Positions 7,681 to 28,010 of a stretch of 29,396 nucleotides of DNA are shown here, one piece after another; position 1 is the stretch's first letter, and every line of letters starts with the position of its first letter. The translations under genes and the position numbers were made by a program. Where the stretch lies: contig CAXXSM010000009.1 in assembly GCA_963663405.2 (NCBI GenBank), positions 1-29,396 of the forward strand, read 5' to 3'. The notes under the pieces were generated by a model that was not told the DNA's origin, did no database searches, and was given only the letters and a program-made list of their open reading frames with translations. The DNA comes from a bacterium (GTDB lineage: Bacteria > Hinthialibacterota > Hinthialibacteria > Hinthialibacterales > Hinthialibacteraceae).

Positions 7681-9091
7681 ATGAAAAAGGATATTGCGAT
7701 CATCGGCGCTGGGATCGTAGGAACCGCGATCGCGCGCGAACTATCCTGCTGCGATCTCTCCTGCGTTCTGCTGGAAAAACACAATGATGTGGGGGCGGAG
7801 ACGAGCAAAGCGAACAGCGCGATTCTGCATACGGGATTTGACGCTCCACCAGGATCGTTGGAAGCGCGTTTAGTGAGAGACAGTTACAACGAGTTTTGCC
7901 GCATTGCGCCGGCGATGGGGATCGCGCTTGAAAAGACGGGCGCGCTCTTGGTTGCTTGGACGGAGGAGGAAGTCCAATCCCTGCCCGCTATTGTAAAAAA
8001 AGCGCGCGAGAATGGCGTGATGGATGTAGCGGAACTCTCGTTGGAAGAATTGTATACACGCGAACCTGACTTAGCGCCCGGCGCGCTGGCTGCCTTGGAA
8101 GTGCCAAGGGAATCGATTATCGATCCGTTTACCCCGGTAATCACGTTCGCTACACAGGCGGCCCGCAATGGAGTCGAGATTCTCTGCAGTCACACTCTGC
8201 TGGGAGTCCGGACGGAGGGAGGAACGCATTTTCTCCAAACAACAGGCGGATCGATTGAGGCGAACTGCGTGATTAACGCGGCGGGATTGTACAGCGATGA
8301 AGTGGACCGGTTGTTTGGTCATGAAGTGTTTACCGTCACGCCGCGCAAGGGTGAATTCATCATTTATGATAAGATCGCCCGGTCCTTGGCAAGTAGTATC
8401 ATTCTTCCTGTGCCTACGGAAAAAAACGAAAGGCATGCTCGTTTCACCTACAGTATTTGGCAATCTATTGGCGGGTCCCACCGCAGACGACCAAAAGGAT
8501 AAAACGGATACCAGCACAAGCGCCGGGGGATTGGAGAGAATCCGCCGGAACGCGGAACGGTTATTCCCCGCATTGGCGCGTATCCCGGTTACCGCTACCT
8601 ACGCGGGTCTGCGGGCCGCCACTGAACACCGGGATTATCAAATTCACTTTTATCCTGATCAGAATTATATTACGGTGGGAGGGATTCGATCCACCGGCCT
8701 TTCCGGCTCATTGGGCATTGCGCCTTATGTGCTGGCAGGATTGCGGGATATGGGTTGGAAAGCGGAACGTGTCCGGGACTATCCAAAAATCAAACCGCAT
8801 AATCTGGGTGAAGCGTTCGAACGGCCCTATCAAAGTCAAGAATATATCCGGGAGAATCCGGATTACGGCCGGATCGTCTGCCACTGTGAACGGGTATCGC
8901 GCGCGGAGATTGAAGATGCGCTCAATAGCGATGTACCCGCCAGAGATATCGATGGACTGCGCCGCCGGACGCGAGCGTCGATGGGCCGCTGTCAAGGATT
9001 CCACTGCCAGGCGGCCCTGGACGCCGTGCTAAGGGAAGCGAATCCCAGCTATGCGGAAGACAGAGTAAAAAAAGGGGGGCAAGATGATTGA
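7681..9091 (+). CDS. FAD-dependent oxidoreductase (GlpA/L-2-hydroxyglutarate oxidase-like) with C-terminal BFD-like [2Fe-2S] domain; one +1 indel at A7 run 8420-8426
   Basis: IAIIGAGIVG, ETSKANSAILHTGFD, PRKGEF in ORF 7681..8502, continuing as TKGMLVSPTVFGNLLAGPTA, YAGLRAA, GIRSTGLS, IVCHCE...RRTRASMGRCQGFHC in ORF 8297..9091. Confidence 0.85.
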
Positions 9092-10325
9092 ACGGCGTTT
9101 AGTAGATGTACTCATCATCGGCGGTGGTCCCGCTGGACTCAGCGCCGCCCGGCGTCTCAAGAACTTGGGCGTGGAATCCGTGTTGGTCTGTGAAAGGAAA
9201 TCGGTTTTAGGCGGGACGCCCTTATATTCCAACCATTTCGGATTTGGCCCTACTCTGACGACGGGGCCGTTCTATGCCGTCAAACTGATCCGCGATGCGC
9301 TTAAAACAGAATGTTGAATTATGGACGGAAGCGACTGTCCATGCGTGGGAAGGGGATCGAACGGTATGCGTGACGAGTCCAAAAGGTCGGGGCGCCATAA
9401 CCGCGAAAGCCGTTCTGCTGGCCACTGGCTGCCGGGAAAAGCACACGCAGCGCGCTTCTCGTTCCGGGACACCGTCCATCCGGTGTGTTGACCACATCTT
9501 CGCTGCAGCATTTCACATTCGCCTACAAACGTACAATCGGAGAAAGGGCGCTGGTCGTGGGCGCTGAACATGTATCGTTCAGCGCGGTCCATACGCTGCG
9601 GCGTTATGGCTGCAAAACAGTCGCGATGATTACGACTCATACACAGCATCAAACGTATCCTCCGGTGAAATGGTTTCTCTCGGATCTGCGTCGCATTCCC
9701 ATCATGACGAACGCCATCCCCAGTAATATTCTTGGCGGAGACCGGGTGGAAGCCGTAAGAGGTAACCAATACTGTTTCGGGTAAGACTAATTGCTATGAA
9801 GTGGACACCGTTGTGTTTTCCGGGCGGTTCATTCCCGAATACGAACAAGCTTACGCGGCGGGTGTTGCGGTGGATGAAGGGACGCGCGGTCCGGCGGTTG
9901 ACCAGCGTTTGCGTACAGAGAAGGAAGGTATTTTCGCCGCCGGTAATATTCTCCGGGGCGCGGAACGGGCGGGTGTGGCGGCGCGGGAGGGCCGTTACGC
10001 CGCGGACATGATACACGCCTATCTTCATAAACCAACGTGGCCGCGTGACCGGATTGCTCTGTATTGCAAGTCTCCTTTGACCTGCGTTTCACCCAACCGT
10101 ATTGCGGTCAACGATAGCGCTCCTCCAGTTTGGTTGATGACTTGGCGGGTGGATAAATGTATAGAAAAGGGAATTTTCAGGATCGAGCAGGATGGGCGTG
10201 TTTTGTATGAACGAAACGTTGGGCGGCTGCTGCCCAACCGGCGGCTTGTGTTGTGTTCCGGGGATTGGATAAAAGATGTACGCCTGGATGGTTCTGCGTT
10301 GACGGCGGAGATTGTATCGGTGTAA
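9084..10325 (+). CDS. NAD(P)/FAD-dependent oxidoreductase (pyridine nucleotide-disulfide family), usual partner of the GlpA-like gene; several indels
   Basis: Fragments in successive frames: VLIIGGGPAGLSAA (9084), AVLLATGCRE (9295), ALVVGAEHVSFSA (9485), DTVVFSGRFIPE...GPAVDQRLRT..GIFAAGNIL (9801). Start overlaps the upstream stop. Confidence 0.8.
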
Positions 10326-10430: not shown

Positions 10431-11938
10431 ATGAACAATTCTAAAAAATCACTTTTTAACCGGCGTAGTTTCATTCAGTCCGCTTCTTGTGGACTTGCCG
10501 CGCTCACGGCGGGACAGTCCTTCGGCTCCGTGCGAAAACGGAGGAATGTCGTCTTTGTGCTCAGTGACGATCATCGTTATGATTTTATGGGATTCATGAA
10601 AGGCGCTCCCGCTTTTTTAGAGACGCCGAATATGGATCGCATGGCGCGTGAAGGGGCGCATCTGGCGAACGCGTTTGTCAGCACGTCTCTCTGTTCTCCC
10701 AGCCGGGCGTCGATCCTAACAGGGCAGTATATGCGGCATCACGGGATTGTGGATAACCAGCGACCCGCGCCGGAAGGTACGGTCTTTTTCCCAAAGTATT
10801 TGCAGGAAGCGGGTATCAAAACCGCTTTTATCGGCAAATGGCATATGGGGCACGGGCGGGACGATCCAAGACCAGGCTTCGATCATTGGGAGAGTTTTCA
10901 AAGGGCAGGGAACTTACTTTGATCCCGAATTGAAATGTCAACGGAACACGCCGGAAATTCGAAGGCTATACAACCGATGTATTGACGGATCGCGCGCTCG
11001 CGTGGCTGCGGGAACGGGACAGTGAGGATTCGCCGTTTTTCTTGTATCTCATACAAAGCGGTTCATTATCCTTTCCAACCGGCGCCGCGTTATCAAGGCC
11101 GGTATGCGAAAGAGACAGTCGCGCGTCCGGAAACGATGGCCAACACGGAGCGTAACTACCAATCTCAACCGCACTGGGTGCGTGAGCGGCGTTATAGCAT
11201 CCACGGGATCGATCACATGGAGACGGGGCCGTATGACAACGATCCCGTGCCTTCGTTCGACGCTCTCTATAAACAATATTGTGAAACCGTTCATGGATTG
11301 GATGAGAATCTGGGGCGGGTGTTGGGACTATCTGGATGAATCCGGCTTGAGTCAATCAACTTTGGTGGTGTACATGGGGGATAATGGATTTGCGCTGGGC
11401 GAGCATGGTTTCTATGACAAACGCGACGCCTTCGAAGAATCGATCCGCGTCCCGATGCTCGCGTACGCGCCTGGATTGATTGAACCGGGCTCGCGGATCT
11501 CACAGATGGTTCAAAATATCGATATCGCGCCGACTCTGTTGGAAGCGGCGGGGCGCGCAAGCGCCAGAGAAAGCCGCGATGGACGGCCGGTCGTTTATGC
11601 CATTGCTTCTTGGTCAATCAGTTCCTTGGCGCGATCATATTTTGTATGAGTATTATTGGGAGTGGAATTTTCCCGCGACACCGACAGTGTTCGCGATCCG
11701 GGATGAGCGGTATAAGTATATTTTCTACCAAGGCGTTTGGGATCGTGACGGTTTTTATGATCTGCAGACCGATCCACATGAACGGCATAACTTGATCAAC
11801 GTCCCTGCGTATAACCAGCAAATTGAGGCGATGAAAAAAACAACTCTTTGATGAACTCGACGATCGGGATGGATTGACAATACCAGTAAGGGCGTCCATT
11901 GGGAGAACGGCTCGATCAGCGGAAGGAATCGGCGATAA
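10431..11938 (+). CDS. Tat-exported Cys-type sulfatase (arylsulfatase/GlcNAc-6-sulfatase-like); multiple indels, 3' end approximate
   Basis: Twin-arginine RRSFI, NVVFVLSDDHR, signature CSPSRASILTG, IGKWHMG, then in other frames YKAVH.PF, YMGDNGFALGEHG..DKR..FEESIRVP, NIDIAPTLLE, DLQTDPHERHNL. Confidence 0.85.
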
Positions 11939-16453: not shown

Positions 16454-17975
16454 TTATCCGTTGCTCGTTGGTTGACGCATGCGCAAATCCAACGTTAATG
16501 GATAGTCTTTATTTTTCGTAACAGATATTGCGCGCATTTGTCCCGGCGTATGACCGAACGATTCAAATCGAGACGCACGGCGCGACTCGGCTTCCAATGC
16601 ATTGATAGGAAACGTGTCGTAATTCCGCCCACCGGGATGCATAACATGGTATGTACACCCTCCAAGCGAACGTTGGTTCCAGGTATCAACCAGATCGATT
16701 ACCAATGGCGTATGTACAGGGATTGTTGGATGAAGGCAGGAAGGCGGCTGCCACGCTCGATACCGGATTCCAGCGCAGAATTCTCCCTTGCGTCCGGTAG
16801 GATGAAGGGGGGACGGGGATTCCGTTGCAAGTGATTTGATGTCGGGGATCGACGGCGCCGGAAATCTTGATTTGAATTCTTTCAAGCGACGAATCCACAT
16901 AACGAGAGGTTCCTTGCGAGGTCTGTTCTTCACCCAGTACGTGCCAGGGTTCGATGGCTTGCCGAAGTTCAATCTCAACATCATCGTATGCGACAACGCC
17001 AATCCGGGGAAACCGAAATTCAAAATGGGCTTCAAACCACGACTCTTTTAAGGGAAATCCAAACGATGTTATATTGTGTATGACGTCACAGAAATCCTGC
17101 CAAATAAAATGAGGCAGCATAAACCGATCGTGAAGTTGTGTCCCCCAACGAACAAGTTTTTCTTGATAGGGAACTTCCCACATCCACGCGCACAATGCGC
17201 GCAACAGCAATTGCTGAGCCAAACTCATTTGATAGTGTGGAGGCATTTCAAAACTGCGGAATTCCACCAAACCAAGCCGGCCCCTTGGTGAATTCGGCGC
17301 GTAAAGTTTGTCGATGCAAATTTCCGCCCGATGCGTATTCCCCGTAAGATCGACCAACAGATGACGAAATACTCGATCGACCAACCAATGCGGATGCGAT
17401 CCTTCTTTAGAAATTTGATCGAACGCAATTTCCATTTCGTGAACGGCTTCGTGCCGCGCTTCATCAACGCGCGGCGCCTGACTTGTTGGTCCAACAAACC
17501 AACCGGAGAATAAATAAGAGAGCGATGGATGGTTCAACCAATAGGCGATGATGCTCTTTAACAAATCAGGGCGGCGCAAAAAGGGACTGTCTTTCGTCGC
17601 CGGTCCGCCTAATACTAGATGGTTGCCTCCATTGGTTCCCGTGTGCCTTCCATCCAGCATAAACTTTTCTGTTCCCAATCGGGAAAGCCTTGCTTCTTCA
17701 TAGACGCCTTGTGTAACGTTTACCAATTCACCCCAGGAAAATGAGGGATGAACGTTCACTTCGATTACTCCTGGATCGGGAGTTACTTTATATTGATTTA
17801 ATCGTGAATCGCTTGGAGGATGGTAGCCCTCAATACGGACGGGCATTTTGAGTTCATTGGCGGTCTCTTCTATACAAACGACCAATTCTAGATACTGCTC
17901 GAGGTAGCGCAGGGGAGGCATAAAAACATACAGCCGTCCCTCTCGCGGTTCGACGCATAAAGCCGTGCGAACGAC
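16454..17975 (-). pseudogene. C-terminal half of a DUF2126 (putative amidoligase, normally transglutaminase-fused) gene; N-terminal half missing
   Basis: VVRTALCVEPREGRLYVFMPP, VTPDPGVIEVNVHP, EKFMLDGRHTGT.GGNH, HPSLSYLFSG.FVGPTSQAPRVDEAR, GNTHRAEICIDKLY, QLHDRFMLPHF, ELRQAIEPWHVLGEE, then frameshift near 16810 to AGIRYRAWQPPSCLHPTIPVH, HPGGRNYDTFPINALEAESRR, YPLTLDLR. Confidence 0.8.
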
Positions 17976-18420
17976 GCCGTCCCAACTCTGATTCACTCCC
18001 CAAGCGTCTTCCTGGGAATAGTACTCCGTTGGAATCCACGTATCACTAATGATTGCAATATGACTCGTCAACATTTCTGGCAAGATTTCCAACCAAATCC
18101 CTTTCCCTGAGAAACCGGCGGATAAAGAGGCGACTCCAGGAATGGCGCCTGGATTGAGTAAACTGTTTACGTTCAATTCCTCTAGTTCCATACTAACCGA
18201 CTCAAATGTCCCATCCGTTTTAGAGGCGCCAGTTGTTCCCGATGCCAACAAAGAATCGTATCCGGCAGTGAAAATAGTCTAGGTTTCCTTCTACACATTC
18301 CGCCCAGAAGTCTTCCCTTTGAACACGAACCGGGCCCGTTGATTATCGTTACGTAGTATGCGCTTTTTGCCTTGGACTTCGAGGAGCATCTTGATCACTG
18401 TATGCAGTAACTCGATTTCC
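17976..18420 (-). other. Unidentified coding-like fragment joined in frame to the DUF2126 half-gene
   Basis: The open frame upstream of VVRTAL (TIFTAGYDSLLASGTTGASKTDG...SAGFSGKGIWLEILPE...QSWDG) does not resemble DUF2126 and is interrupted by TAG codons near 18280-18293. Confidence 0.35.
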
Positions 18421-18796: not shown

Positions 18797-20242
18797 ATGT
18801 ATAAAAAACGAATTATCATGCTGCGCCTGTTCGCTTTATTTTGTATTCCGTTCCTTGGAATCACACCTGGATTCGCCGCCACAACCCTTACACCGGGGAT
18901 ATACGCATTGGAAGACCTGACTGCCGATCCGGAACCTGTTACCGTGAACTCTGTCGGCACGGATGATATGGATTCTGATACGTTCCAAATCCCAACACAG
19001 GAAACATTTAATCTTGAAGTATATGAATTGACGCCGGGTTTTTACCGTTTCGTCAATGATCCAACCGCAAAAACCAATCCAGCTGCGCTGAACAGTGAAG
19101 TCGGAGGATTAAACTTGAGCGCGCTCACAACCGATACAGGGGCTGATGGTGTACTTTTTCGTGGCTTAGGCAGTTATCCAGGAGAAACAGCCATCAGTTT
19201 CGGTGTAATTAATGTGTTTCCTGACGCGCCTTTACTGCCAGACGGAAATCTGGATGTCGAACGCGCCGCTGGTGAAATTGGCTATCAATTTTACACTGGC
19301 CAGAACTACTTCGACATCAATGGCACAATTGGAGTTTTTGAAAATGTATCGATCGGCGATCATGGCAATAACAACACAGGAATTATCCGAACTCAGAATG
19401 GCGGCCGAACCTTTATGACTGATGTTTGGATTTATAATGTATATGATGGTATCTTTTTTAATGACACTGCAGACGGGTACTTCTTCAATTGTATTTTTCA
19501 TCAATCCTACCAGCCCTGGATACATATCGACGACGCGATGGCCGATGGATATTTCACAGAGGAGTGGAACACTTTTGTTATGCCCGATGGATTGCAAGGC
19601 AGTTCGTTCGCGGATGGCTTGCAATCTCTCGGCGTGGATATTACAGAAGAGCAGTATCCCCAAATTCAAGGGGTTGTTTTGCGAAATGACGCGACCTGGT
19701 CTTATAATATTACACTTATTCAAACTCGATACGATCCTGATTTTCAAAATGTGTACATGAAAAATTGTACTTTAGTTAAACACATCGTCCAGCATACAAA
19801 TCTTACTTGGAGTCACATATCCGGGAATGGGGCGGGTGTCTATGCTCTGCTTGAAGATTGTATGATACTCAATCTCGATACGAGTCCCAATACCCAAATC
19901 CGATTTGGTACCGATGGTGTTGACTTTGCGGGCAATATGTTCAACATCAAGTTTTGGAATTACGGCGGAAACGACGCCAATGTAATGGGAATGGATCCCA
20001 ATTGGCTGATTTTTGATGTCGATATGGAAACACCTGGCGGCTTAGATATCAGCGATGTTTCAGAATTAATCCGCCTTGATGGCCGGAAGTTAACTACCTT
20101 TAAACCCGGTTCAGTGGAATTGACAATGGCTAGTGATGGCGGTCCGATCGGTTACCGTTTACCGGCGACAGCGCCTGATGGCCCATTGCCGGTTATTGAT
20201 GAATCCGCTACTGTGGATGTTGATTTTTGGATGGTTTATTGA
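18797..20242 (+). CDS. Secreted protein of unknown function, probable beta-helix-like fold, C-terminal ...SATVDVDFWMVY motif
   Basis: 481-aa ORF, AGGAG RBS, signal peptide MYKKRIIMLRLFALFCIPFLGITPGFA; beta-helix-like turns FENVSI, FFNCIF, MKNCTL, LEDCMI; acidic. Confidence 0.8.
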   Translation: MYKKRIIMLRLFALFCIPFLGITPGFAATTLTPGIYALEDLTADPEPVTVNSVGTDDMDSDTFQIPTQETFNLEVYELTPGFYRFVNDPTAKTNPAALNSEVGGLNLSALTTDTGADGVLFRGLGSYPGETAISFGVINVFPDAPLLPDGNLDVERAAGEIGYQFYTGQNYFDINGTIGVFENVSIGDHGNNNTGIIRTQNGGRTFMTDVWIYNVYDGIFFNDTADGYFFNCIFHQSYQPWIHIDDAMADGYFTEEWNTFVMPDGLQGSSFADGLQSLGVDITEEQYPQIQGVVLRNDATWSYNITLIQTRYDPDFQNVYMKNCTLVKHIVQHTNLTWSHISGNGAGVYALLEDCMILNLDTSPNTQIRFGTDGVDFAGNMFNIKFWNYGGNDANVMGMDPNWLIFDVDMETPGGLDISDVSELIRLDGRKLTTFKPGSVELTMASDGGPIGYRLPATAPDGPLPVIDESATVDVDFWMVY

Positions 20243-20257
20243 TCAAGGCAGAAGTCT

Positions 20258-20578
20258 CTATACCTCATGCGAAAGAAAAGAACTTGTTGATCTCCGATAT
20301 GATGACCGGGGGTGTTTCGATTGATCCCCATTCAAAACAGTCTGCGATTTAGAAAATGACGTGCTCACCGTTGGAAATTTTATTCGTTTATTAATAAGTG
20401 ATGGTTTGAATAAATTAGGAATAAAATTGGTGGGAAATCTATTTACGCCAAAGTCGTTTAAATATAATGTCAAGTGATCTCCATCTAGATAATAAATCCC
20501 ATCCTGCTTTTGTCCAATTATAAATCTTATTGATTTGTTTATCCATAGCCGGATTCCTTTGTTCATTCCATTGTTCAT
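20258..20578 (-). pseudogene. Possible gene remnant with a TIGR03067-like segment
   Basis: DGIYYLDGDHLTLYLNDFGVNRFPTNF resembles the GIY.LDGD.L.L......G..RPT.F pattern of TIGR03067 domains; the rest of the ORF is not convincing. Confidence 0.25.
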
Positions 20579-20854
20579 TGTATGGTGATAGCGAATATCA
20601 TGGCGTTGGAATTTGTTTGATCCATTCTTCTTACCACTTGATTGTTTTGTTCGTTCAACACTTATTCTAATTGGTTGGAAACACCCATGTGGTGGAAATA
20701 GAGCATTCTAATGGTTAGTTGAAAGTGGAATTAAGACATTATTAAAACTTTCAAATATGAGGAAAAACGATAGTTGGGTTTATTTGAAACATGAAAGTGT
20801 TATATAATTGAATACGTCTCTATGCAAAACTTGTCGATTTGAATCCAATTAATA

Positions 20855-23800
20855 ATGAAAAGAATGGCAAATTCTCAAAACGATCCGGCCACTATAAACA
20901 GAGAAGATCTTATTAGATCAAACTCATTTTTGAAAATCATCTCTACTCTTCTTCTCATAGTTCTTCTTGTGTTCTTGTTTTCAGTGAGGTGTGTGGCTCA
21001 AGAATCTGTTCACTGGCGTGTTTGGAATGATGTGGATGTTTTTCATTCGAGATATATCAAGGCCAGCCCATCCGGAAAAATATGGACCATCTTCGAAACC
21101 ACGTCAGGATATAGGAATGGTTGGTTTGATGGATATACCGTAGGCGCGCTTCCTCTCATTAAATCCGATTTCAGCGTGTCTTTTCCGCTTGAGAATCGCT
21201 CCGGCCAGATATGGACTTTAGATATTGATATGATGTCATATCAGATTATTGGTTTTAGCCGCTATGTAAGCAAACAGGCTATCAACGAAGGGAATTGGAT
21301 TCACTATCCAGCAGAAGAGATCAAATCCTTTATATCGCCTGAAGAGCCATATTCCGCCATCATGCGCTTTGCTCCCGGCGATAAAGAGTGTGTGTTGCTT
21401 CTTTCTTCCAAGGGATTGATTGAGTATAACGCCAACACAAAACAAACCCGTTTTCTAAAGACGATTGAAGAAACGAATCTTGGCCGTTTCATTCATATGG
21501 CTGAATCAAAGGATGGCGGTTTATGGATCACTTCGGAAAACGGTTTGGCTAAAGTAACAGGCAGTCATGCTGGAGGATTGCCTACGGTTGACTCTGTACA
21601 TTGGCAGGAATTTGTTTTTCCCCCTGAACTTAAACTTCAAGATTCCGCCATACCGATTGAAGTCCATCCTGGAGAAGTTTTCTTCACGGCCTCGCATACT
21701 GGGAATTCAAGACGTATTCTGGTCCGGTTCGACGGTGAGAATTGGCGAATCGTTCCCATCTCCGGAGAACAGCAAGTGATTATGGGCTGGCGTGGTGGGG
21801 ATGGCTATATCTGGGCGCTACGAAGCCAGACGATCGTGGATCCATTTGTTCCCTATGGCTTTGTCAAACGTAATGTGCCCAATTGGATCTCTCCTACATT
21901 GATACGAATTCATGACGGATATGAGGAACTCATTGAGTGGCCGAAGGATCTTGGTGGTTATTTTCGCTCTGCCACTGTGGAGCCAAGTGGCGTTTTTTGG
22001 ATCGCGCAAGGCGCCAGCGCCGCTCGATGCGCGGTTCCAGCGTGGAGAATTCCTCCCGGTTGCCCTGAAATTGATATGCAAGTCTATATGGCGTCTGAAG
22101 ATGATCGGGGACGTCTCTGGTTCGTTGCGCTAGACCGGCTGCTCTGCCTGGAAGACGGAAAATGGAAAACGTACATATTGCCCGATGGTCAATCTGTGAT
22201 TATTTCTACAATTCAAAAACTGTGTCCCTACTCGGATGACCGCATCGTGGTCCTGGTTTCCAGTGGCTCATTGCTCATACTCGATCCACAGGATGGAAAA
22301 TTTCAATCGCTAACTCATCCGGCGGGGAGGAAAATTAAAACCATCACTCCAAGGGCAGAGGGAGGATTTTGGATTGCGACCTTGGATGAATCCCTATCCC
22401 AGGCTTACATTGAGACGCTTGAAGGAGAATGTTTCGAAATCGTTCTCGGCGAAACCGAAGAGACGCGGACAGTGGATCTGTTATTCCATCCTTTTATTCT
22501 TGAAACAAAAGACGGGGAACTTTGGTGTCCCTGGAATGGCCGTGTAGGGAGATATAAGAGTGGTGAGTTTCATCTTATTGGACCGAAAACCGAACATCCG
22601 TTTGGGAACTTAAACTATTTTACAGAGATCGAAGATGGCGTTATCTGGGCGGGAGGACATAATAAGATTGTTGAGTTCAAGGGGAATTCATGGAGAACCT
22701 TACAAGTTGGTTTTGGGAATGTGCATCAGATAGTAAGACGGCGGGATGGCAGTCTATTGGCCGCAACACATCAAGGCATCCTGCAATATGTAGAGAATTC
22801 ATGGATTGTCAATACAATAGAAGATGGTCTTCCAAATTCGCATTGTTACATGGTATATGAGGATCAGCAGAACCGTCTTTGGGCCGGAACAGCAAGGGGA
22901 TTAGCGCTTTATGATCCCACGATCGGTCAAGATCCACCCAAGACCATCATCAGAGAGGACAACAATCTGAAAGAAACGGCGCCGGGTGGGGAAGCGCATA
23001 TCATTTATTCAGGTATGGATCGGTGGAACTATACAAAGCCGGAACGCTTGCTCTATTCGCACCGAATTGATAATGGTCCCTGGAGTTCGTTTTCGTCAGA
23101 GACAATCGCCACATTTTCGGGTTTAACTGCAGGAGAACACTTGTTTGAAGTACGCGCGATTGACCGGAATTGGAATATTGAACTAAATCCATCATCTTAT
23201 CTTTTCAGAACTCATCCTTACTGGTATAAAGATTCAATGTTTCTCTTGATCCTGATAGCTGGAATAATACTGATCCTTATTTTGCCTGGTTTACACATCT
23301 ATCACCACTTTGCCATTGAGAATTTAGTATTACAGCGTACCGCGCAACTGCGCCATACCGAGTGGCGTTTGCTGGAGATTAGTGAACGAGAACAGCAGCG
23401 CATCGGGCACGATCTGCACGACGACATCGTCCAGGATTTAACGGCCATCGCCATGAGCGAAGAGATTTTGGCCAATGAAATTGCGGAACAATCCCCAGCG
23501 GCGGCGAATGAACTTAAGGGATTTATAAAGCTGATCGACGAAGCTTCGGAAAAAACACGGCGATTGGCGAGTGGATTGGCGCCGGTCAATCTCGATAAAC
23601 TGGGTCTTGCCGCCTGTCTGCGGCAACTAGCGGAAGTGATTCAGAAACAGAATACGATACACTGCCGGGTTGAGATCGCTTCCTCTCTAAATGCTGGAGA
23701 CCAAAATGTACAGCTCAATCTCTATCGTATTGTACAAGAAGCAATGAATAATGTGGTCAAACATGCCCAAGCGACGAAGATGATCATTCGTCTATCAGAA

Positions 23801-23983
23801 AGGGATTTCCAAATCGAAATCGATATTGAAGATGATGGTGTGGGATTTGATGCTGATATGACGGTGGAAGACGGTATGGGACTCCACATCATGCGATACC
23901 GGGCGGAATTGATCGGAGGGCGCCTCACGATCCAGAGCCGCCCAGGAACAGGGACGAAAATAGCGCTCCGGGCTCCGATATGA
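20855..23983 (+). CDS. Membrane sensor histidine kinase: extracytoplasmic beta-propeller repeats, Y_Y_Y domain, TM helix, HisKA_3 and HATPase_c
   Basis: N-terminal hydrophobic helix; propeller repeats (ESKDGGLWITSENGL, EDDRGRLWF, EDGLPNSHCYMVYEDQQNRLWAGTARGL); YSHRIDNGPWS...FSGLTAGEHLFEVRAIDR; TM; EREQQRIGHDLHDDIVQDL; LYRIVQEAMNNVVKHA, IEDDGVGF, GMGLHIMRYRAELIGG. Confidence 0.93.
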   Translation: MKRMANSQNDPATINREDLIRSNSFLKIISTLLLIVLLVFLFSVRCVAQESVHWRVWNDVDVFHSRYIKASPSGKIWTIFETTSGYRNGWFDGYTVGALPLIKSDFSVSFPLENRSGQIWTLDIDMMSYQIIGFSRYVSKQAINEGNWIHYPAEEIKSFISPEEPYSAIMRFAPGDKECVLLLSSKGLIEYNANTKQTRFLKTIEETNLGRFIHMAESKDGGLWITSENGLAKVTGSHAGGLPTVDSVHWQEFVFPPELKLQDSAIPIEVHPGEVFFTASHTGNSRRILVRFDGENWRIVPISGEQQVIMGWRGGDGYIWALRSQTIVDPFVPYGFVKRNVPNWISPTLIRIHDGYEELIEWPKDLGGYFRSATVEPSGVFWIAQGASAARCAVPAWRIPPGCPEIDMQVYMASEDDRGRLWFVALDRLLCLEDGKWKTYILPDGQSVIISTIQKLCPYSDDRIVVLVSSGSLLILDPQDGKFQSLTHPAGRKIKTITPRAEGGFWIATLDESLSQAYIETLEGECFEIVLGETEETRTVDLLFHPFILETKDGELWCPWNGRVGRYKSGEFHLIGPKTEHPFGNLNYFTEIEDGVIWAGGHNKIVEFKGNSWRTLQVGFGNVHQIVRRRDGSLLAATHQGILQYVENSWIVNTIEDGLPNSHCYMVYEDQQNRLWAGTARGLALYDPTIGQDPPKTIIREDNNLKETAPGGEAHIIYSGMDRWNYTKPERLLYSHRIDNGPWSSFSSETIATFSGLTAGEHLFEVRAIDRNWNIELNPSSYLFRTHPYWYKDSMFLLILIAGIILILILPGLHIYHHFAIENLVLQRTAQLRHTEWRLLEISEREQQRIGHDLHDDIVQDLTAIAMSEEILANEIAEQSPAAANELKGFIKLIDEASEKTRRLASGLAPVNLDKLGLAACLRQLAEVIQKQNTIHCRVEIASSLNAGDQNVQLNLYRIVQEAMNNVVKHAQATKMIIRLSERDFQIEIDIEDDGVGFDADMTVEDGMGLHIMRYRAELIGGRLTIQSRPGTGTKIALRAPI

Positions 23984-23989
23984 GTCGAA

Positions 23990-24011
23990 ACAGCGGTTTT
24001 TTAACTGCTGT
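23990..24011 (+). terminator. Small hairpin after the kinase stop (possible terminator or stabilising stem)
   Basis: ACAGCGGTT-tttt-AACTGCTGT, 9-bp stem with one G-U pair; no U-tract follows. Confidence 0.3.
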
Positions 24012-24043
24012 GATACCGAAGAAACCAGCGCATCATGATCCCC

Positions 24044-24112
24044 TGTGGGAACATTTCCCACAAGAAATCAGGACAATTCCCGATTGTCAATTTCCATGTG
24101 GATGAATACAAT
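24044..24112 (+). promoter_or_regulatory. Two palindromic operator-like sites abutting a sigma70 promoter of the response regulator
   Basis: TGTGGGA-acatt-TCCCACA (24044-24062) and AATCAGGA-caat-TCCCGATT (24066-24085), whose last TT starts TTGTCA (24084-24089), 17 bp, TACAAT (24107-24112). Confidence 0.7.
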
Positions 24113-24185
24113 GCGGTTACGGCTATGACTATCGAAATCTCAAGGTGGACTGGACCATCAGCCATACATCTCCTAGGGGCGGTTC

Positions 24186-24854
24186 ATGATGGGCGATGCG
24201 AAAAAGTTACGTATTCTTCTTGTTGATGATCATCCGCTAATGCGCCAGGGGATTGCCCGCGTCATCGAGAAAGATGAGGAACTAACCGTATGTGGCGAGG
24301 CGTCTAGCGTATCGGAAGCCTTAAAAATTGTTGAACGAAGCCGGCCGGATCTGGCTTGTGTTGATCTTTCTCTTGAAAACAGCAATGGCGTGGATTTAGT
24401 ACGCTCGTTGACCCATATGGATCCTCCCATTCCTTGTCTGGTTATCTCGATGCATGAAGATCTGGCTTATGTGGAAAAGGCGTTTAGAGCTGGCGCGTGC
24501 GGTTATTTATTGAAGCGGGAATCGGCGGAAAAATTGACAACGGTTATCCGCCAAGCGCTCCGGGGTGAAGTTTTCACCAGTTCGCAGATCACTTCCTCAA
24601 TGCTTGAGCGGTTAATCCACCCAAACAATGATCAGGAACCTGCGCCGCAAGAAATGCTGACCGCGAGGGAATACGAGATCTTTTGTCTCTTTGGACAAGG
24701 ATCAGCCCGCACCGAGATTGCAGACCAACTCTCCATCAGCGTCAAAACCGTCGATACTCACGTTGAGCGGATCAAAGAGACCTTGCATCTGGATTCCACC
24801 TTCCAGCTCATCCACCGTTCCGTCAAACACTGCCTCAAAGTTGGTTTGCTCTAG
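24186..24854 (+). CDS. NarL/FixJ-family response regulator (REC + LuxR HTH)
   Basis: ILLVDDHPLMRQG, PDLACVDLSL, VISMHED, GACGYLLK, LTAREYEIF.L.GQG....EIADQLSISVKTVDTH. Confidence 0.95.
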   Translation: MMGDAKKLRILLVDDHPLMRQGIARVIEKDEELTVCGEASSVSEALKIVERSRPDLACVDLSLENSNGVDLVRSLTHMDPPIPCLVISMHEDLAYVEKAFRAGACGYLLKRESAEKLTTVIRQALRGEVFTSSQITSSMLERLIHPNNDQEPAPQEMLTAREYEIFCLFGQGSARTEIADQLSISVKTVDTHVERIKETLHLDSTFQLIHRSVKHCLKVGLL

Positions 24855-24901
24855 GTTTTCCTCCATCATTACTCATTTTTCCTCTTGATCCTGTAGTTAA
24901 G

Positions 24902-24991
24902 GTGGGAAATGTTCCCACAAAAAAATAGGAATTATTCCCACAAAAAATGGGAATCTCCCCGATTTATTCAGAGTAACAATGATCCTAGTAT
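24902..24991 (+). promoter_or_regulatory. Three operator-like sites abutting a putative sigma70 promoter of the 25091/26169 operon
   Basis: GTGGGA-aatgt-TCCCAC (24902-24918), ATAGGA-attat-TCCCAC (24925-24941), ATGGGA-atct-CCCCGATT (24947-24964), then TTTATT (24963-24968), 17 bp, TAGTAT (24986-24991); same register as at 24044-24112. Confidence 0.65.
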
Positions 24992-25090
24992 TGGTCAAAG
25001 TAACGTTGTGGGATACGTTCTCTCAAGGATTTTCTCACATCAAAGCCTATATACAAAATTCAGAACGAAGAAAGGATGAGGTAAAGAAAA

Positions 25091-26089
25091 ATGAACAGAG
25101 GGTATGTTTTGATCGCCGTTTTGATCTTCGCAGGAGTAGGATTTGTACACAGCGCTTCGGCTCAATTGACAGCGGAACGAACGTTTTCACAATCCGAGTA
25201 TTTCCCCGGAATCCCCATTCAAGTGACAATTCACATTACGGGCGAGTCGGACCAGCCATTGACAGTAGTGGATACGATCCCCGATGGCTTGGAGATCCAT
25301 GGAAAACACAGTGGGGTAGTCAGTGGAAACCAGATTTCTTTTGAGTCAAGCATTACGTCCACGGGTGTGAAAAATCATGTGTACTATGTCATGTCTCATT
25401 CAGGCAGTCAAGGAGACGCGTTGTTTGAAGGAACAGTAAACGGACAGGTGATTGGAGGCGAAACAACGTTAGTTCAAGGAACATTAGAACCACTGGGTAT
25501 ATTTCAGCATCACACGGATCTTGGGAATCCAATTACACCAGGCAATGCTCGCTACGACTCCGCATCGCAGGAATACTTCATTCAAGGATATTGGAACCAA
25601 GGAGGTACAGGTGGAGCAGGTGGTCATGTTATCTACTCGGAAATGAACGGCGATTTTAGTCTCGAAGCCAAAATGCAAACTGAAAATCCAATCAACGGTG
25701 GAGCCTATATCGGGATTATGGATTACATAGAGACTCATACTCCCTATTACATTTTTTATAGAAATGCTAAAGATACCCTTCTTAATGAACTTTGGGTGAA
25801 TACTCTAGGCGTTTTTTATACCACGGGCATGGAACTTCCCTCTACTGTTCCGTACGAAAAGGCCAAGATCGTCCGTCGAGGGGATAAGGGAGAAATCTAT
25901 TATTCCGATCCCACCACTGGCAATTGGATACTCTTCAGCGAGCAAATGTTATATTTCACCAATCCTGTCTATGCGGTAATTGGCGAGTGGCACAGTGATG
26001 ATTCTTCAAACACCATAGAACACTTTATTGAGGTACAACTAACGGAATTATCTGATTCATCGACTGGGAATTGGGAGATCTATAAGTGA
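25091..26089 (+). CDS. Secreted protein: Ig-like N-terminal domain plus concanavalin A-like (DUF1349-type) domain, C-terminal ...SDSSTGNWEIYK motif
   Basis: GAGGT RBS; signal peptide MNRGYVLIAVLIFAGVGFVHSASA; LTVVDTIPDGL; LGIFQHHTDLGNP..PG.A.YD....EYFIQG, GDFSLEAK, KIVRRGD typical of ConA-like modules. Confidence 0.75.
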   Translation: MNRGYVLIAVLIFAGVGFVHSASAQLTAERTFSQSEYFPGIPIQVTIHITGESDQPLTVVDTIPDGLEIHGKHSGVVSGNQISFESSITSTGVKNHVYYVMSHSGSQGDALFEGTVNGQVIGGETTLVQGTLEPLGIFQHHTDLGNPITPGNARYDSASQEYFIQGYWNQGGTGGAGGHVIYSEMNGDFSLEAKMQTENPINGGAYIGIMDYIETHTPYYIFYRNAKDTLLNELWVNTLGVFYTTGMELPSTVPYEKAKIVRRGDKGEIYYSDPTTGNWILFSEQMLYFTNPVYAVIGEWHSDDSSNTIEHFIEVQLTELSDSSTGNWEIYK

Positions 26090-26168
26090 ACAGAGCGCGG
26101 CGCCATCAAGCGGCGTAGTAATGTTCACGATCCGTAAAATGAATATACAAAAACAGGAGGAAGCGGAG

Positions 26169-28010
26169 ATGAAGAACCAGTACAATCTGTATGTGCGCTT
26201 GTGCTTTGCCATGTGTGTTCTATGTATCACGCCTGCTGCTTTCGGCAAAGTGATCTATGTCTCTCTCAATGCGGCAGGTGATGGCAGCGGATCAAGTTGG
26301 GAAAACGCATGTACAAGCATCGCCGCAGGCATTGCAATCTCGTCAACTCACTCCTGGAACAACGAAATCAGCGCCGATGAAATCTGGGTGGCTTCGGGAC
26401 GATATCGGGAAGCCGTCACGATGAAAGAAATGACTCTGATGTATGGTGGTTTTTCAGGGAACGAAACGATTCGTGAAGCGCGCGATTGGATTGCAAATGA
26501 AACGATAATCGACGCGGCGGGATTGAACGCCACATCCGTCATAGCCGCCAATCGTGCAGTGTTAGACGGATTGACCATTACCGGTGGTAATTCGAATGCG
26601 TATGGTGGTGGTGTGTATTGTCCGAAAGAAGCCTCTGTTTTGCTCAATAACTGTATGATTAACGAGAATGCGGCAGAATCCGGTGGTGGAGTATACTGTG
26701 CGGAAGGCTCTAGTGTGAAATTTTCTAATTGCGCCATTCGCAAAAATACGGCGAAAAGTGATGGAGGAGGACTGTATTGTTCGATGTGGTCTTCAGTGGA
26801 ATTATCACACTCAGACATTGTAGAGAATATTGGTGAAAACATGGATTGGCAAGGAAGCCAAGGAGGTGGTGTATTCTGCGATTGGGATTCGGACATTATG
26901 TTTGAATCCTGCGTAATTCATGAAAATAGTGCCGGCTGGGGGGGGGGCGTGGTTTGCACAGGGGTGACCTTTGCGAATTTCTTTCACTGCACGATTTCCA
27001 AAAACTACGCGGGGTGCAATGGAGGTATTTTTGGTTGGAATATTAATATGACCGATTGCCTTGTTACGGATAATACACAAACGGTTGGTGGTTGTTTTGC
27101 CAATACGGCTGCGGGTCTCACCGCTTATGCCGAATCATCAATTTCAAACAGCTTGATCACGGGGAATGTTGCAGTAGAAAGCGCTGAAACCGGAGGATGT
27201 GTGATTTCAGTTGGAGGTCAAATGGAGAACTGCACAATTAGCAATAACCAAGGTGGAAACGGGGGATTGCATATTTACGAAGCTGGATTTGAAGGCGCTG
27301 ATGCAATAATTAAAAACTGCACGATAACAGATAACATAGGAGGATTCAGGGGTGCGGGAGTTAATGGCCATAGATTTGAAATGATCAATTGTACGATCCT
27401 AAGAAACTCGGTAGTAGCAGATAGTTTTGGTTGTAGTGGGGTAAACGGCGAGAGATATACGTTAAAGAATTGCGTGATCGCAGAGAATTTTGGAGGTGAA
27501 ACGGTTGTTGAGAATACTGGATATAATGCGGAAGCTGGTGAAGGCATGACCTGTTACATGATTAATTGTATTATTCGAGAAAACACAACAAACGCCTCCG
27601 TCATTACTTCTTACGACTATCCATTTCTTCTTGCCAATTGCACTATCGCAGGGAACTCAGGCGATGGATGCGATCTGACAACTGGTTCTAAATTAACAAA
27701 CTGCATTTTGTGGAATTCAGGAAAAGAGATCACAGGTTCAGCGGAAGTCACATATAGCTGTGTTGAAGGAGGCTGGCCAGGCGAAGGAAACATAGACGCC
27801 AATCCTCGATTTACCGATCCAGATAATGGCGATTACCATTTGCAAGATGGTTCCCCATGTATCGACACAGGACTCGTAACCGCAGCGCCAGATGAAGATA
27901 TGAAAGGCCACAGCCGGCCAGGGAGCGATGGTTTCGTGGATATCGGCGCGTATGAATCCCCTCCAGAATATAAATCCACTGTCTATGTACCTTGTTGGAA
28001 AATGTATTAA
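26169..28010 (+). CDS. Secreted right-handed parallel beta-helix repeat protein with choice-of-anchor Q-like tail, C-terminal ...KSTVYVPCWKMY motif
   Basis: Likely start 26169 (AGGAGG upstream, signal peptide); VIYVS..A.GDGSGSSWENA, EIWVASG.Y, LDGLTITGG, repeated GGGVYC / NC.I..N units, NIDANPRF.DPDNGDYHLQDGSPCIDTG, DIGAYE. Confidence 0.88.
   Translation: MKNQYNLYVRLCFAMCVLCITPAAFGKVIYVSLNAAGDGSGSSWENACTSIAAGIAISSTHSWNNEISADEIWVASGRYREAVTMKEMTLMYGGFSGNETIREARDWIANETIIDAAGLNATSVIAANRAVLDGLTITGGNSNAYGGGVYCPKEASVLLNNCMINENAAESGGGVYCAEGSSVKFSNCAIRKNTAKSDGGGLYCSMWSSVELSHSDIVENIGENMDWQGSQGGGVFCDWDSDIMFESCVIHENSAGWGGGVVCTGVTFANFFHCTISKNYAGCNGGIFGWNINMTDCLVTDNTQTVGGCFANTAAGLTAYAESSISNSLITGNVAVESAETGGCVISVGGQMENCTISNNQGGNGGLHIYEAGFEGADAIIKNCTITDNIGGFRGAGVNGHRFEMINCTILRNSVVADSFGCSGVNGERYTLKNCVIAENFGGETVVENTGYNAEAGEGMTCYMINCIIRENTTNASVITSYDYPFLLANCTIAGNSGDGCDLTTGSKLTNCILWNSGKEITGSAEVTYSCVEGGWPGEGNIDANPRFTDPDNGDYHLQDGSPCIDTGLVTAAPDEDMKGHSRPGSDGFVDIGAYESPPEYKSTVYVPCWKMY

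Follow-up and report, generated by a model that had tools for sequence, protein, structure and literature searches.

In type IV pili (T4P), the last ∼10 residues of PilC/PilY1 complete the β-sheet of PilK, whereas the GspK protein of type II secretion systems (T2SS) supplies that strand itself (PMC13533445). This plug contains a conserved tryptophan and a hydrophobic residue three positions later (W+3), both of which are required (PMC13711793), and in Neisseria it is disordered alone, has a Kd of ∼62 µM and varies in sequence between systems (bioRxiv 10.64898/2026.09.18.752573). In Kingella, one pocket is common to PilC1 and PilC2, which are unlinked and very different proteins. Only in 2026 was the plug of PilC demonstrated, as a device that serves one adhesin, and tip display of chosen cargo has been proposed for engineering. 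Here we describe a nine-residue C-terminal tail with a similar tryptophan pattern that ends three exported proteins encoded within a 29,396-nucleotide stretch of DNA (contig CAXXSM010000009.1 of assembly GCA_963663405.2, phylum Hinthialibacterota; hereafter the window) and 218 of the 6,413 genes called in the host genome. Haft's general marks of sorting signals (bioRxiv 2023.06.07.544157) are a signal peptide, unrelated protein bodies and exchange with other signals. We conclude that the tail very probably serves as an address or docking label that is specific to this lineage and previously undescribed.

The tail and its carriers

The host genome (8.44 Mb in 170 contigs, 82% complete) was called with a simple hexamer model, and signal peptides were assigned by a loose heuristic rather than SignalP. 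An initial annotation of the window had reported that three secreted proteins end in W, any residue, a hydrophobic residue and Y. Genome-wide, this pattern ends 151 of the 6,413 genes, versus 3-21 at 11 shifted control ends taken 5-55 residues inward, and W stands at position −4 of 278 ends, versus ∼100 at other positions. The motif is thus real but was drawn too short, as it spans nine residues of the form [TSV]-x-[VI]-x-[DNSE]-W-x-[LIV]-[YFH](-x)-COOH, with the consensus [TSV]-[SAP]-[VI]-x-[DN]-W-[ESM]-[LIV]-[YFH]. T, S or V occupies position −9, V or I −7 (86%), D or N −5 (52%), W −4 (94%) and Y, F or H −1 (92%), and position −2 is L in 61%, more commonly than V, I or M. Membership was decided with an iterated position-specific scoring matrix (PSSM; score ≥7), which retrieves the 218 genes against a truncated-end null of ∼1 per proteome. 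The protein stops at the final aromatic residue in 168 members, one residue later in 45 and two or three residues later in 5.

The suspected enrichment among secreted proteins is borne out: the tail is found on 161 of 1,689 non-pilin genes with a signal peptide and no transmembrane segment, versus 53 of 3,762 genes without (odds ratio 7.4, p=5e-42). Of the 53 members missed by the signal-peptide heuristic, 18 have a weaker hydrophobic N-region (as is seen in 18% of background genes), 16 run into an upstream open reading frame (ORF), as expected of frameshift fragments, one sits at the edge of a contig and the other 18 have no such explanation. Among 169 P-loop proteins that lack a signal peptide, one is tailed. 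A lipobox pattern fails to set members apart, occurring in 8 of 218 versus 80 of 1,796 other signal-peptide proteins, and a Tat motif occurs in 1 of 218. As the initial annotation had noted for its three examples, a linker, here rich in S, T and P, precedes the tails. The members fall into 83 single-linkage sequence clusters, 53 of them singletons, with lectin-like, β-helix, propeller and leucine-rich repeat bodies and a largest member of 3,270 residues. Some are recent duplicates, and paralogues occur both tailed and untailed, such as other choice-of-anchor Q proteins that stop right after that domain. Internal copies of the tail scoring ≥14 number only 6, versus the 218 terminal members. A second shared C-terminal domain, with a consensus near IIIDTGDQVNLLEIPYW, was observed on 15 exported proteins (contigs C55, C111, C149, C36, C27 and others), none of them tailed.

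The three end peptides first reported in the window (20201-20242, 26051-26089 and 27972-28010) translate exactly, and the three ORFs (Table 1) all begin with signal-peptide-like segments. Their bodies are unrelated, as claimed: the best BLAST E value between ORF1 and ORF3 is 0.089, and ORF2 appears to consist of different domains (a lead only). ORF1 gave no match in Pfam and NCBIfam searches and no Foldseek match at E≤0.001, with only weak ones to pectate/alginate-lyase β-helices; in the AlphaFold model of the mature protein (pLDDT 90.7 overall) the last 11 residues fall below 50 and are unstructured. A Pfam search with ORF2 was without match, while Atlas feature matches of 0.82 and 0.78 to a DUF11-like and a GH43_C2/DUF1349-like domain serve as a lead only; its C-terminal 70 residues cluster with eight paralogues, every one of them tailed. 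The start of ORF3 is likely 26169, with AGGAGG upstream, its tail follows the choice-of-anchor Q domain (a DIGAYE domain end in the initial annotation), and the tail of its closest homologue is almost the same. The remaining 18 genes called in the window, other exported enzymes included, score below −10.

Table 1. Positions of the tailed window proteins, their tails and loci of filament machinery.
Feature	Location	Strand	Score or match
ORF1, exported protein of 481 residues, unnamed family; β-helix-like body, free C-terminal tail	18797-20242	+	
Tail 1, VDVDFWMVY-stop	20213-20242	+	PSSM 17.2
ORF2, exported two-domain protein of 332 residues (DUF11-like and concanavalin-like, lead only)	25091-26089	+	
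Tail 2, SSTGNWEIYK-stop, one residue beyond the aromatic	26057-26089	+	PSSM 16.1
ORF3, right-handed β-helix protein with choice-of-anchor Q domain	26121-28010	+	PF13229, E 1e-20; NF041518, residues 570-613
Tail 3, VYVPCWKMY-stop	27981-28010	+	PSSM 15.3
C133 T2SS operon	C133:24900-36810		
H-I-J-K minor pilin cluster with giant K	C143:46431-58257		
Cohesin-domain protein, examples	L006:5896-6981; L134:6273-8231		

Between ORF1 and ORF2 (20855-24854) the window encodes a sensor kinase with propeller/Y_Y_Y domains together with a regulator of the NarL type, both untailed. Genes resembling those for an FAD oxidoreductase, a sulfatase and a transglutaminase (named by eye) are split across frames at 7681-9317, 10431-11851 and 16454-18251. 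The genes for the giant K pilin and the cohesin-like protein described below, and those for secretins, are likewise split in the host genome; because they are whole in relatives, assembly indels are suggested.

The tail is conserved in homologues, being kept in 28 of 29 homologues of ORF1 (Ca. Hinthialibacter sp. and Ca. Omnitrophota are among their names); in the most distant one it is replaced by a dockerin-like end (by eye). Among the 120 ORF3 homologues listed, 8 are tailed, Pfam assigns a C-terminal domain (CTD) of the type IX secretion system (T9SS) to 10, a dockerin to 3 and an SLH domain to 1, and 2 have a PEP-CTERM-like end (by eye). Other short anchor-less ends on ORF3 homologues are of the xLPLxxR type (P0020, P0030, P0039, P0043, P0045 and P0056), of the [FY]YR[LV] type (P0022, P0047, P0084, P0087 and P0107) or read PWIPLLL (P0076), and two homologues (P0037 and P0082) have W-x-x-Y-[KR] variants slightly below the member threshold. 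At the DNA level, a pattern of tail plus stop codon was counted in a phylum set of 35 genomes, 26 of the same order and 9 others of the class. It has 24-139 matches in the order genomes, versus 3-19 for reversed-pattern controls, and 6-39 in the other 9, and reaches at least twice a genome's own control in 30 of the 35; for a genome titled Ca. Hinthialibacteria OLB16 the counts are 19 versus 5. The probable range of the tail is thus the phylum Hinthialibacterota. Outside the phylum, 21 genomes reached through GspK-like loci show no clear excess, the highest count being 16 versus 5.

Type IV filament machinery as candidate reader

We tentatively propose, with a confidence that falls a little short of even, that the tail is a portable, plug-like C-terminal docking peptide that is read by the tip machinery of a type IV filament (T2SS- or T4aP-like). 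The lineage-specific label of the initial annotation is well supported, although S-layer docking and transpeptidation, which it had offered as readers, are less favoured than type IV filament machinery. Because they have ordinary signal peptides, tailed proteins reach the periplasm, folded and soluble and with the end free and disordered. The tail would then fold as a β-strand onto the sheet edge of a tip pilin, with the tryptophan and the final aromatic residue buried, by analogy with PilC/PilY1 on PilK, and the cargo would be pushed through the secretin and released, or kept on the tip of a retractile filament. Such a filament may be built from one of ∼107 variable GspG-like pilins, and one reader would serve ∼220 interchangeable cargoes. 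The candidate readers are a giant K pilin, whose empty strand slot would be shared with a partner of its own, the GspK of a T2SS that lacks gspG, which would need to yield its own tail-like last strand, and the variable pilins themselves.

The tail follows the plug pattern, with W in 94% of members and Y, F or H at W+3 in 92%, and a related pattern ends GspK. The GspK of the operon on contig C133 matches the fold of GspK/XcpX (Z 22, rmsd 2.1-2.4) and ends in a strand (residues 422-428); the consensus of its type is P-x-I-x-Y-W-K-V-x-R-stop, in register with the tail, and one example reads IIDWKVIR. From 30 GspK loci, 7 that were misread or of another type and 1 that was cut off were dropped; the scores of the 22 ends left have their median at the 97.7th percentile among non-member ends.

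The host envelope is diderm (two Omp85 matches), and the genome encodes three T2SS operons, a Tad locus and a pilM-to-secretin locus, with nine secretin matches at eight loci and with PilT and PilU homologues above cut-off; TonB receptors above cut-off number only two in 8.4 Mb, which also favours the filament reading. PilX_N (PF14341) has no match in the genome, the control being positive. The C133 operon has the order E-F-H-I-J-K-L-M-C-D with no room for gspG, as in all eight loci of this type that were read (L004, L164-L169 and L171; a ninth fetched locus, of another type, was left out), and must therefore borrow a major pilin. The separate H-I-J-K cluster (also L044-L063) encodes the giant K pilin, a single-copy protein that is intact at ∼2,130-2,320 residues in most relatives and matched in 33 of the 35 genomes. 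It lacks the last strand: 29 of 29 orthologues stop within three residues of the position preceding GspK's last strand, in a register read by eye and supported by aligning the last columns globally (P 27%, E 1e-4), and 20 database homologues have the same kind of end. Local hhalign of the giant K and GspK ends (P 96%) misaligned them beyond a common INxNTA motif. Genome scans found no second K pilin without this strand. When one tail from the window (35 residues, alignment of 15 rows) was modelled in complex with fragments from the N- and C-terminal parts of giant K, the score was 0.00 in two runs, in which no controls were folded, and this counts neither for nor against docking. A genome titled Ca. 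Omnitrophota (L092) encodes a 1,008-residue K-type pilin that likewise lacks the last strand, followed by a gene whose product has a plug-like peptide with W at its end; no tail pattern matches were found in that genome.

Orphan GspG-like pilins number 107 in the host, with 25-202 pattern matches in each of the 35 phylum genomes. A tail gene is the direct neighbour of 25 of the 107, versus 12.0±2.8 expected when tail labels are shuffled among the signal-peptide genes of the same contig, and none of 2,000 permutations reached 25. Ten of the 107 start less than 600 bp after a same-strand tail stop, versus 40 of 2,100 other signal-peptide genes (odds ratio 5.3, p=1e-4). The same arrangement is seen for 12 of the best 100 of 110 pilins in a second genome, probably of the phylum set, versus 0 on the opposite strand and 0.44 expected for uniform placement. 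The cargoes of six such neighbourhoods comprise one CBM9-like protein, two with weak lectin- or reelin-like matches and three without a match. Across the 35 genomes, which as kin are not independent, the counts of tails and pilins correlate with a rho of 0.66, or 0.49 per Mb. Downstream of two orphan pilins we also observed a gene for a 905-residue GspE/PilB-like ATPase (C132:67942-70659; Walker A GPRGSGRT) with an apparent signal peptide, a TPR region and a transmembrane segment ahead of the ATPase domain.

Several observations weigh against a filament-tip reader. All 22 GspK ends score below the member threshold (best −0.5 versus 7), and the three ordinary GspKs of the host retain their own last strand. 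A conserved exported protein of about 410-460 residues follows giant K in 26 of 26 order-level genomes and, in two families (f1 and f2), ends in an NL[YF][FY]RER-like peptide that is nearer the classical W-R-E plug than the tail; because this partner has a plug-like end, the empty slot of giant K is already explained. In the 9 other genomes no partner was found beyond weak linker matches, though K is also cut short there. Tail genes follow tail genes (18 of 218, 8.3%) about as often as pilins do (9.3%), and the adjacency of pilins and tails may therefore stem from regulated loci that they have in common. Related cargoes do not lie beside related pilins (in a co-duplication test 5 of 32 pairs were related, p=0.75), and within the family the per-Mb correlation of tails and pilins is only 0.25 and not significant. 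Finally, an inner-membrane protein that we take to be BlaR1-like from its N-terminus ends in a weak tail (score 7.4) and cannot be secreted, and a cohesin-domain protein beside pilM and the secretin offers another possible partner, as discussed below.

Other readings of the tail

It is conceivable, if doubtful, that the tail instead docks to a non-pilin receptor of the envelope for export or to hold the protein at the surface, comparable to cohesin-dockerin or PorV-CTD pairs. The receptor could perhaps be the N-domain of a secretin, the cohesin-like protein upstream of pilM, or an S-layer or outer-membrane protein. Such a receptor would agree with the T9SS CTDs, dockerins and SLH domain that occupy the tail's position in the listed ORF3 homologues, and with the dockerin-like end for which one ORF1 homologue exchanges its tail. 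An exported cohesin-domain protein, encoded immediately upstream of pilM and of a TPR-bearing secretin, is, moreover, found in 34 of the 35 phylum genomes and lies beside pilM and the secretin in the nine loci read. However, the genome also contains 16 dockerin-like proteins, none of them tailed, which could be the cohesin's ligands, and the likeness of the tail to GspK's last strand would be left unaccounted for.

Processing by a transpeptidase or a C-terminal protease that cuts near the tryptophan and anchors or matures the protein, as in sortase-type systems, seems unlikely. The tail bears Haft's marks, and the S/T/P-rich linker that precedes it would suit such a substrate, but it has neither a transmembrane helix, a basic tail nor an invariant Cys, Gly or Glu, and no exosortase was found, with a positive control. 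The alternating hydrophobic positions (−9/−7 and −4/−2/−1) would also suit a bound strand.

We consider it quite improbable that the tail acts in the periplasm only, as a tag for retention, a chaperone or a scaffold that joins solute-binding proteins to pilin-like inner-membrane proteins, in uptake or sensing complexes without passage of the outer membrane. The weak tail of the BlaR1-like protein, the CBM9-like and lectin-like binding domains among the cargoes beside pilins, and the scarcity of TonB receptors (only two above cut-off in the genome) point this way, whereas the cargoes are often very large, up to 3,270 residues, and belong to types that in other phyla bear signals for the outer surface. 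In BlaR1-like membrane proteins at C115:15134-17194, C150:490-2154 and C25:79910-82006, a weak variant of the tail, common to soluble paralogues, closes the periplasmic domain. A tail without any function in sorting, carried along by paralogue expansion or belonging to a fold, is most improbable and already largely refuted by the counts, since the recent duplicates among the members stand against 83 clusters with 53 singletons, paralogues both tailed and untailed, 6 internal copies versus 218 terminal ones, and a tail that is disordered in the model and kept across the phylum.

Returning to the type IV filament, we regard as speculative, and rather doubtful, the wider proposal that in Hinthialibacterota it is a general platform for export and display with a linear C-terminal signal, in which hundreds of binding proteins and enzymes plug the tip by one β-strand, are paired locally with one of 25-200 variable pilins, and use a retractile filament in place of SusC/SusD-type capture. 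We know of no agreed linear signal for T2SS substrates. If the proposal is true, the tail would give a T2SS/T4P-type pathway a readable nine-residue signal, and the ∼220 plug-like cargoes would mean that evolution has already extended this plug display route to the scale of a proteome. Independently of what reads it, the motif predicts which proteins make up the surface proteome in a phylum that is uncultured and comes from lakes, aquifers and digesters, and the tail would be a sorting signal of new build: nine residues, soluble and with no membrane anchor.

Comparison with described systems

The view that no described sorting family fits the tail was upheld: in Pfam and NCBIfam searches with 15 tails at E values up to 10 there was no sorting-signal match, the one match being to the adjacent choice-of-anchor Q domain. 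No description of the motif was found in the literature, subscription papers and supplements lying outside that search, and the word ‘C-terminal’ is absent from the accessible text of the Hinthialibacter paper (PMC9324843) and from the text of the Sumerlaeota paper (PMC8092238). Exosortase (PF09721) has no match in the 82%-complete genome, with a positive control, other sortase families being outside the search. The T9SS CTD (PF18962), SprA (PF14349) and PilY1 (PF05567) have no genome match, though the control genomes gave none either. The three window proteins have no match to the PF05567 β-propeller, and neither they nor the tails have one to the folded CTD (PF18962/TIGR04183). A β-signal of the β-barrel assembly machinery (BAM) was rejected, as the carriers are not outer-membrane β-barrels: ORF1 models as a soluble β-helix-like protein and ORF3 is a β-helix. 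Membership of the tripartite signals was also rejected, as the tails have no transmembrane helix and no basic cluster, and 168 of 218 stop at the aromatic residue and 45 one residue later. None of the PilY1, tripartite, T9SS and BAM families includes the tail.

With the tripartite signals (LPXTG, PEP-CTERM, GlyGly-CTERM and MYXO-CTERM) the tail shares the use of one C-terminal label on many unrelated signal-peptide proteins, and its exchange in homologues, but it lacks their transmembrane helix and basic cluster, and the exosortase was not found. The type A CTD of the T9SS (TIGR04183, PF18962) occupies the equal position on homologous β-helix proteins and is likewise soluble and without a transmembrane helix; it is, however, a folded domain of ∼75 residues, compared with nine for the tail. 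In the loading of type IVb pili (TcpB-TcpF and CofB-CofJ), as summarised in the Neisseria preprint, a non-pilin cargo likewise has a short disordered peptide that binds the tip pilins and drives secretion, although that signal lies at the N-terminus, binds in the cleft of a homotrimer and serves a single cargo. The C-terminal strand of GspK at the T2SS tip (PDB 3CI0 and 5VTM) resembles the tail in that the C133 type has a hydrophobic residue at W−3, the tryptophan, hydrophobic residues at W+2/W+3 and then the stop; GspK donates this strand in cis, whereas the tail would act in trans. Like the plug of PilC/PilY1 (and MshQ), the tail forms the last 9-12 residues of a signal-peptide protein, is disordered alone, and combines a tryptophan with a hydrophobic residue at W+3. 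The plug, however, has R-E-hydrophobic after its tryptophan where the tail has E/S/M-L-Y, and it belongs to one or a few adhesins with a conserved β-propeller, compared with ∼220 unrelated tailed proteins.

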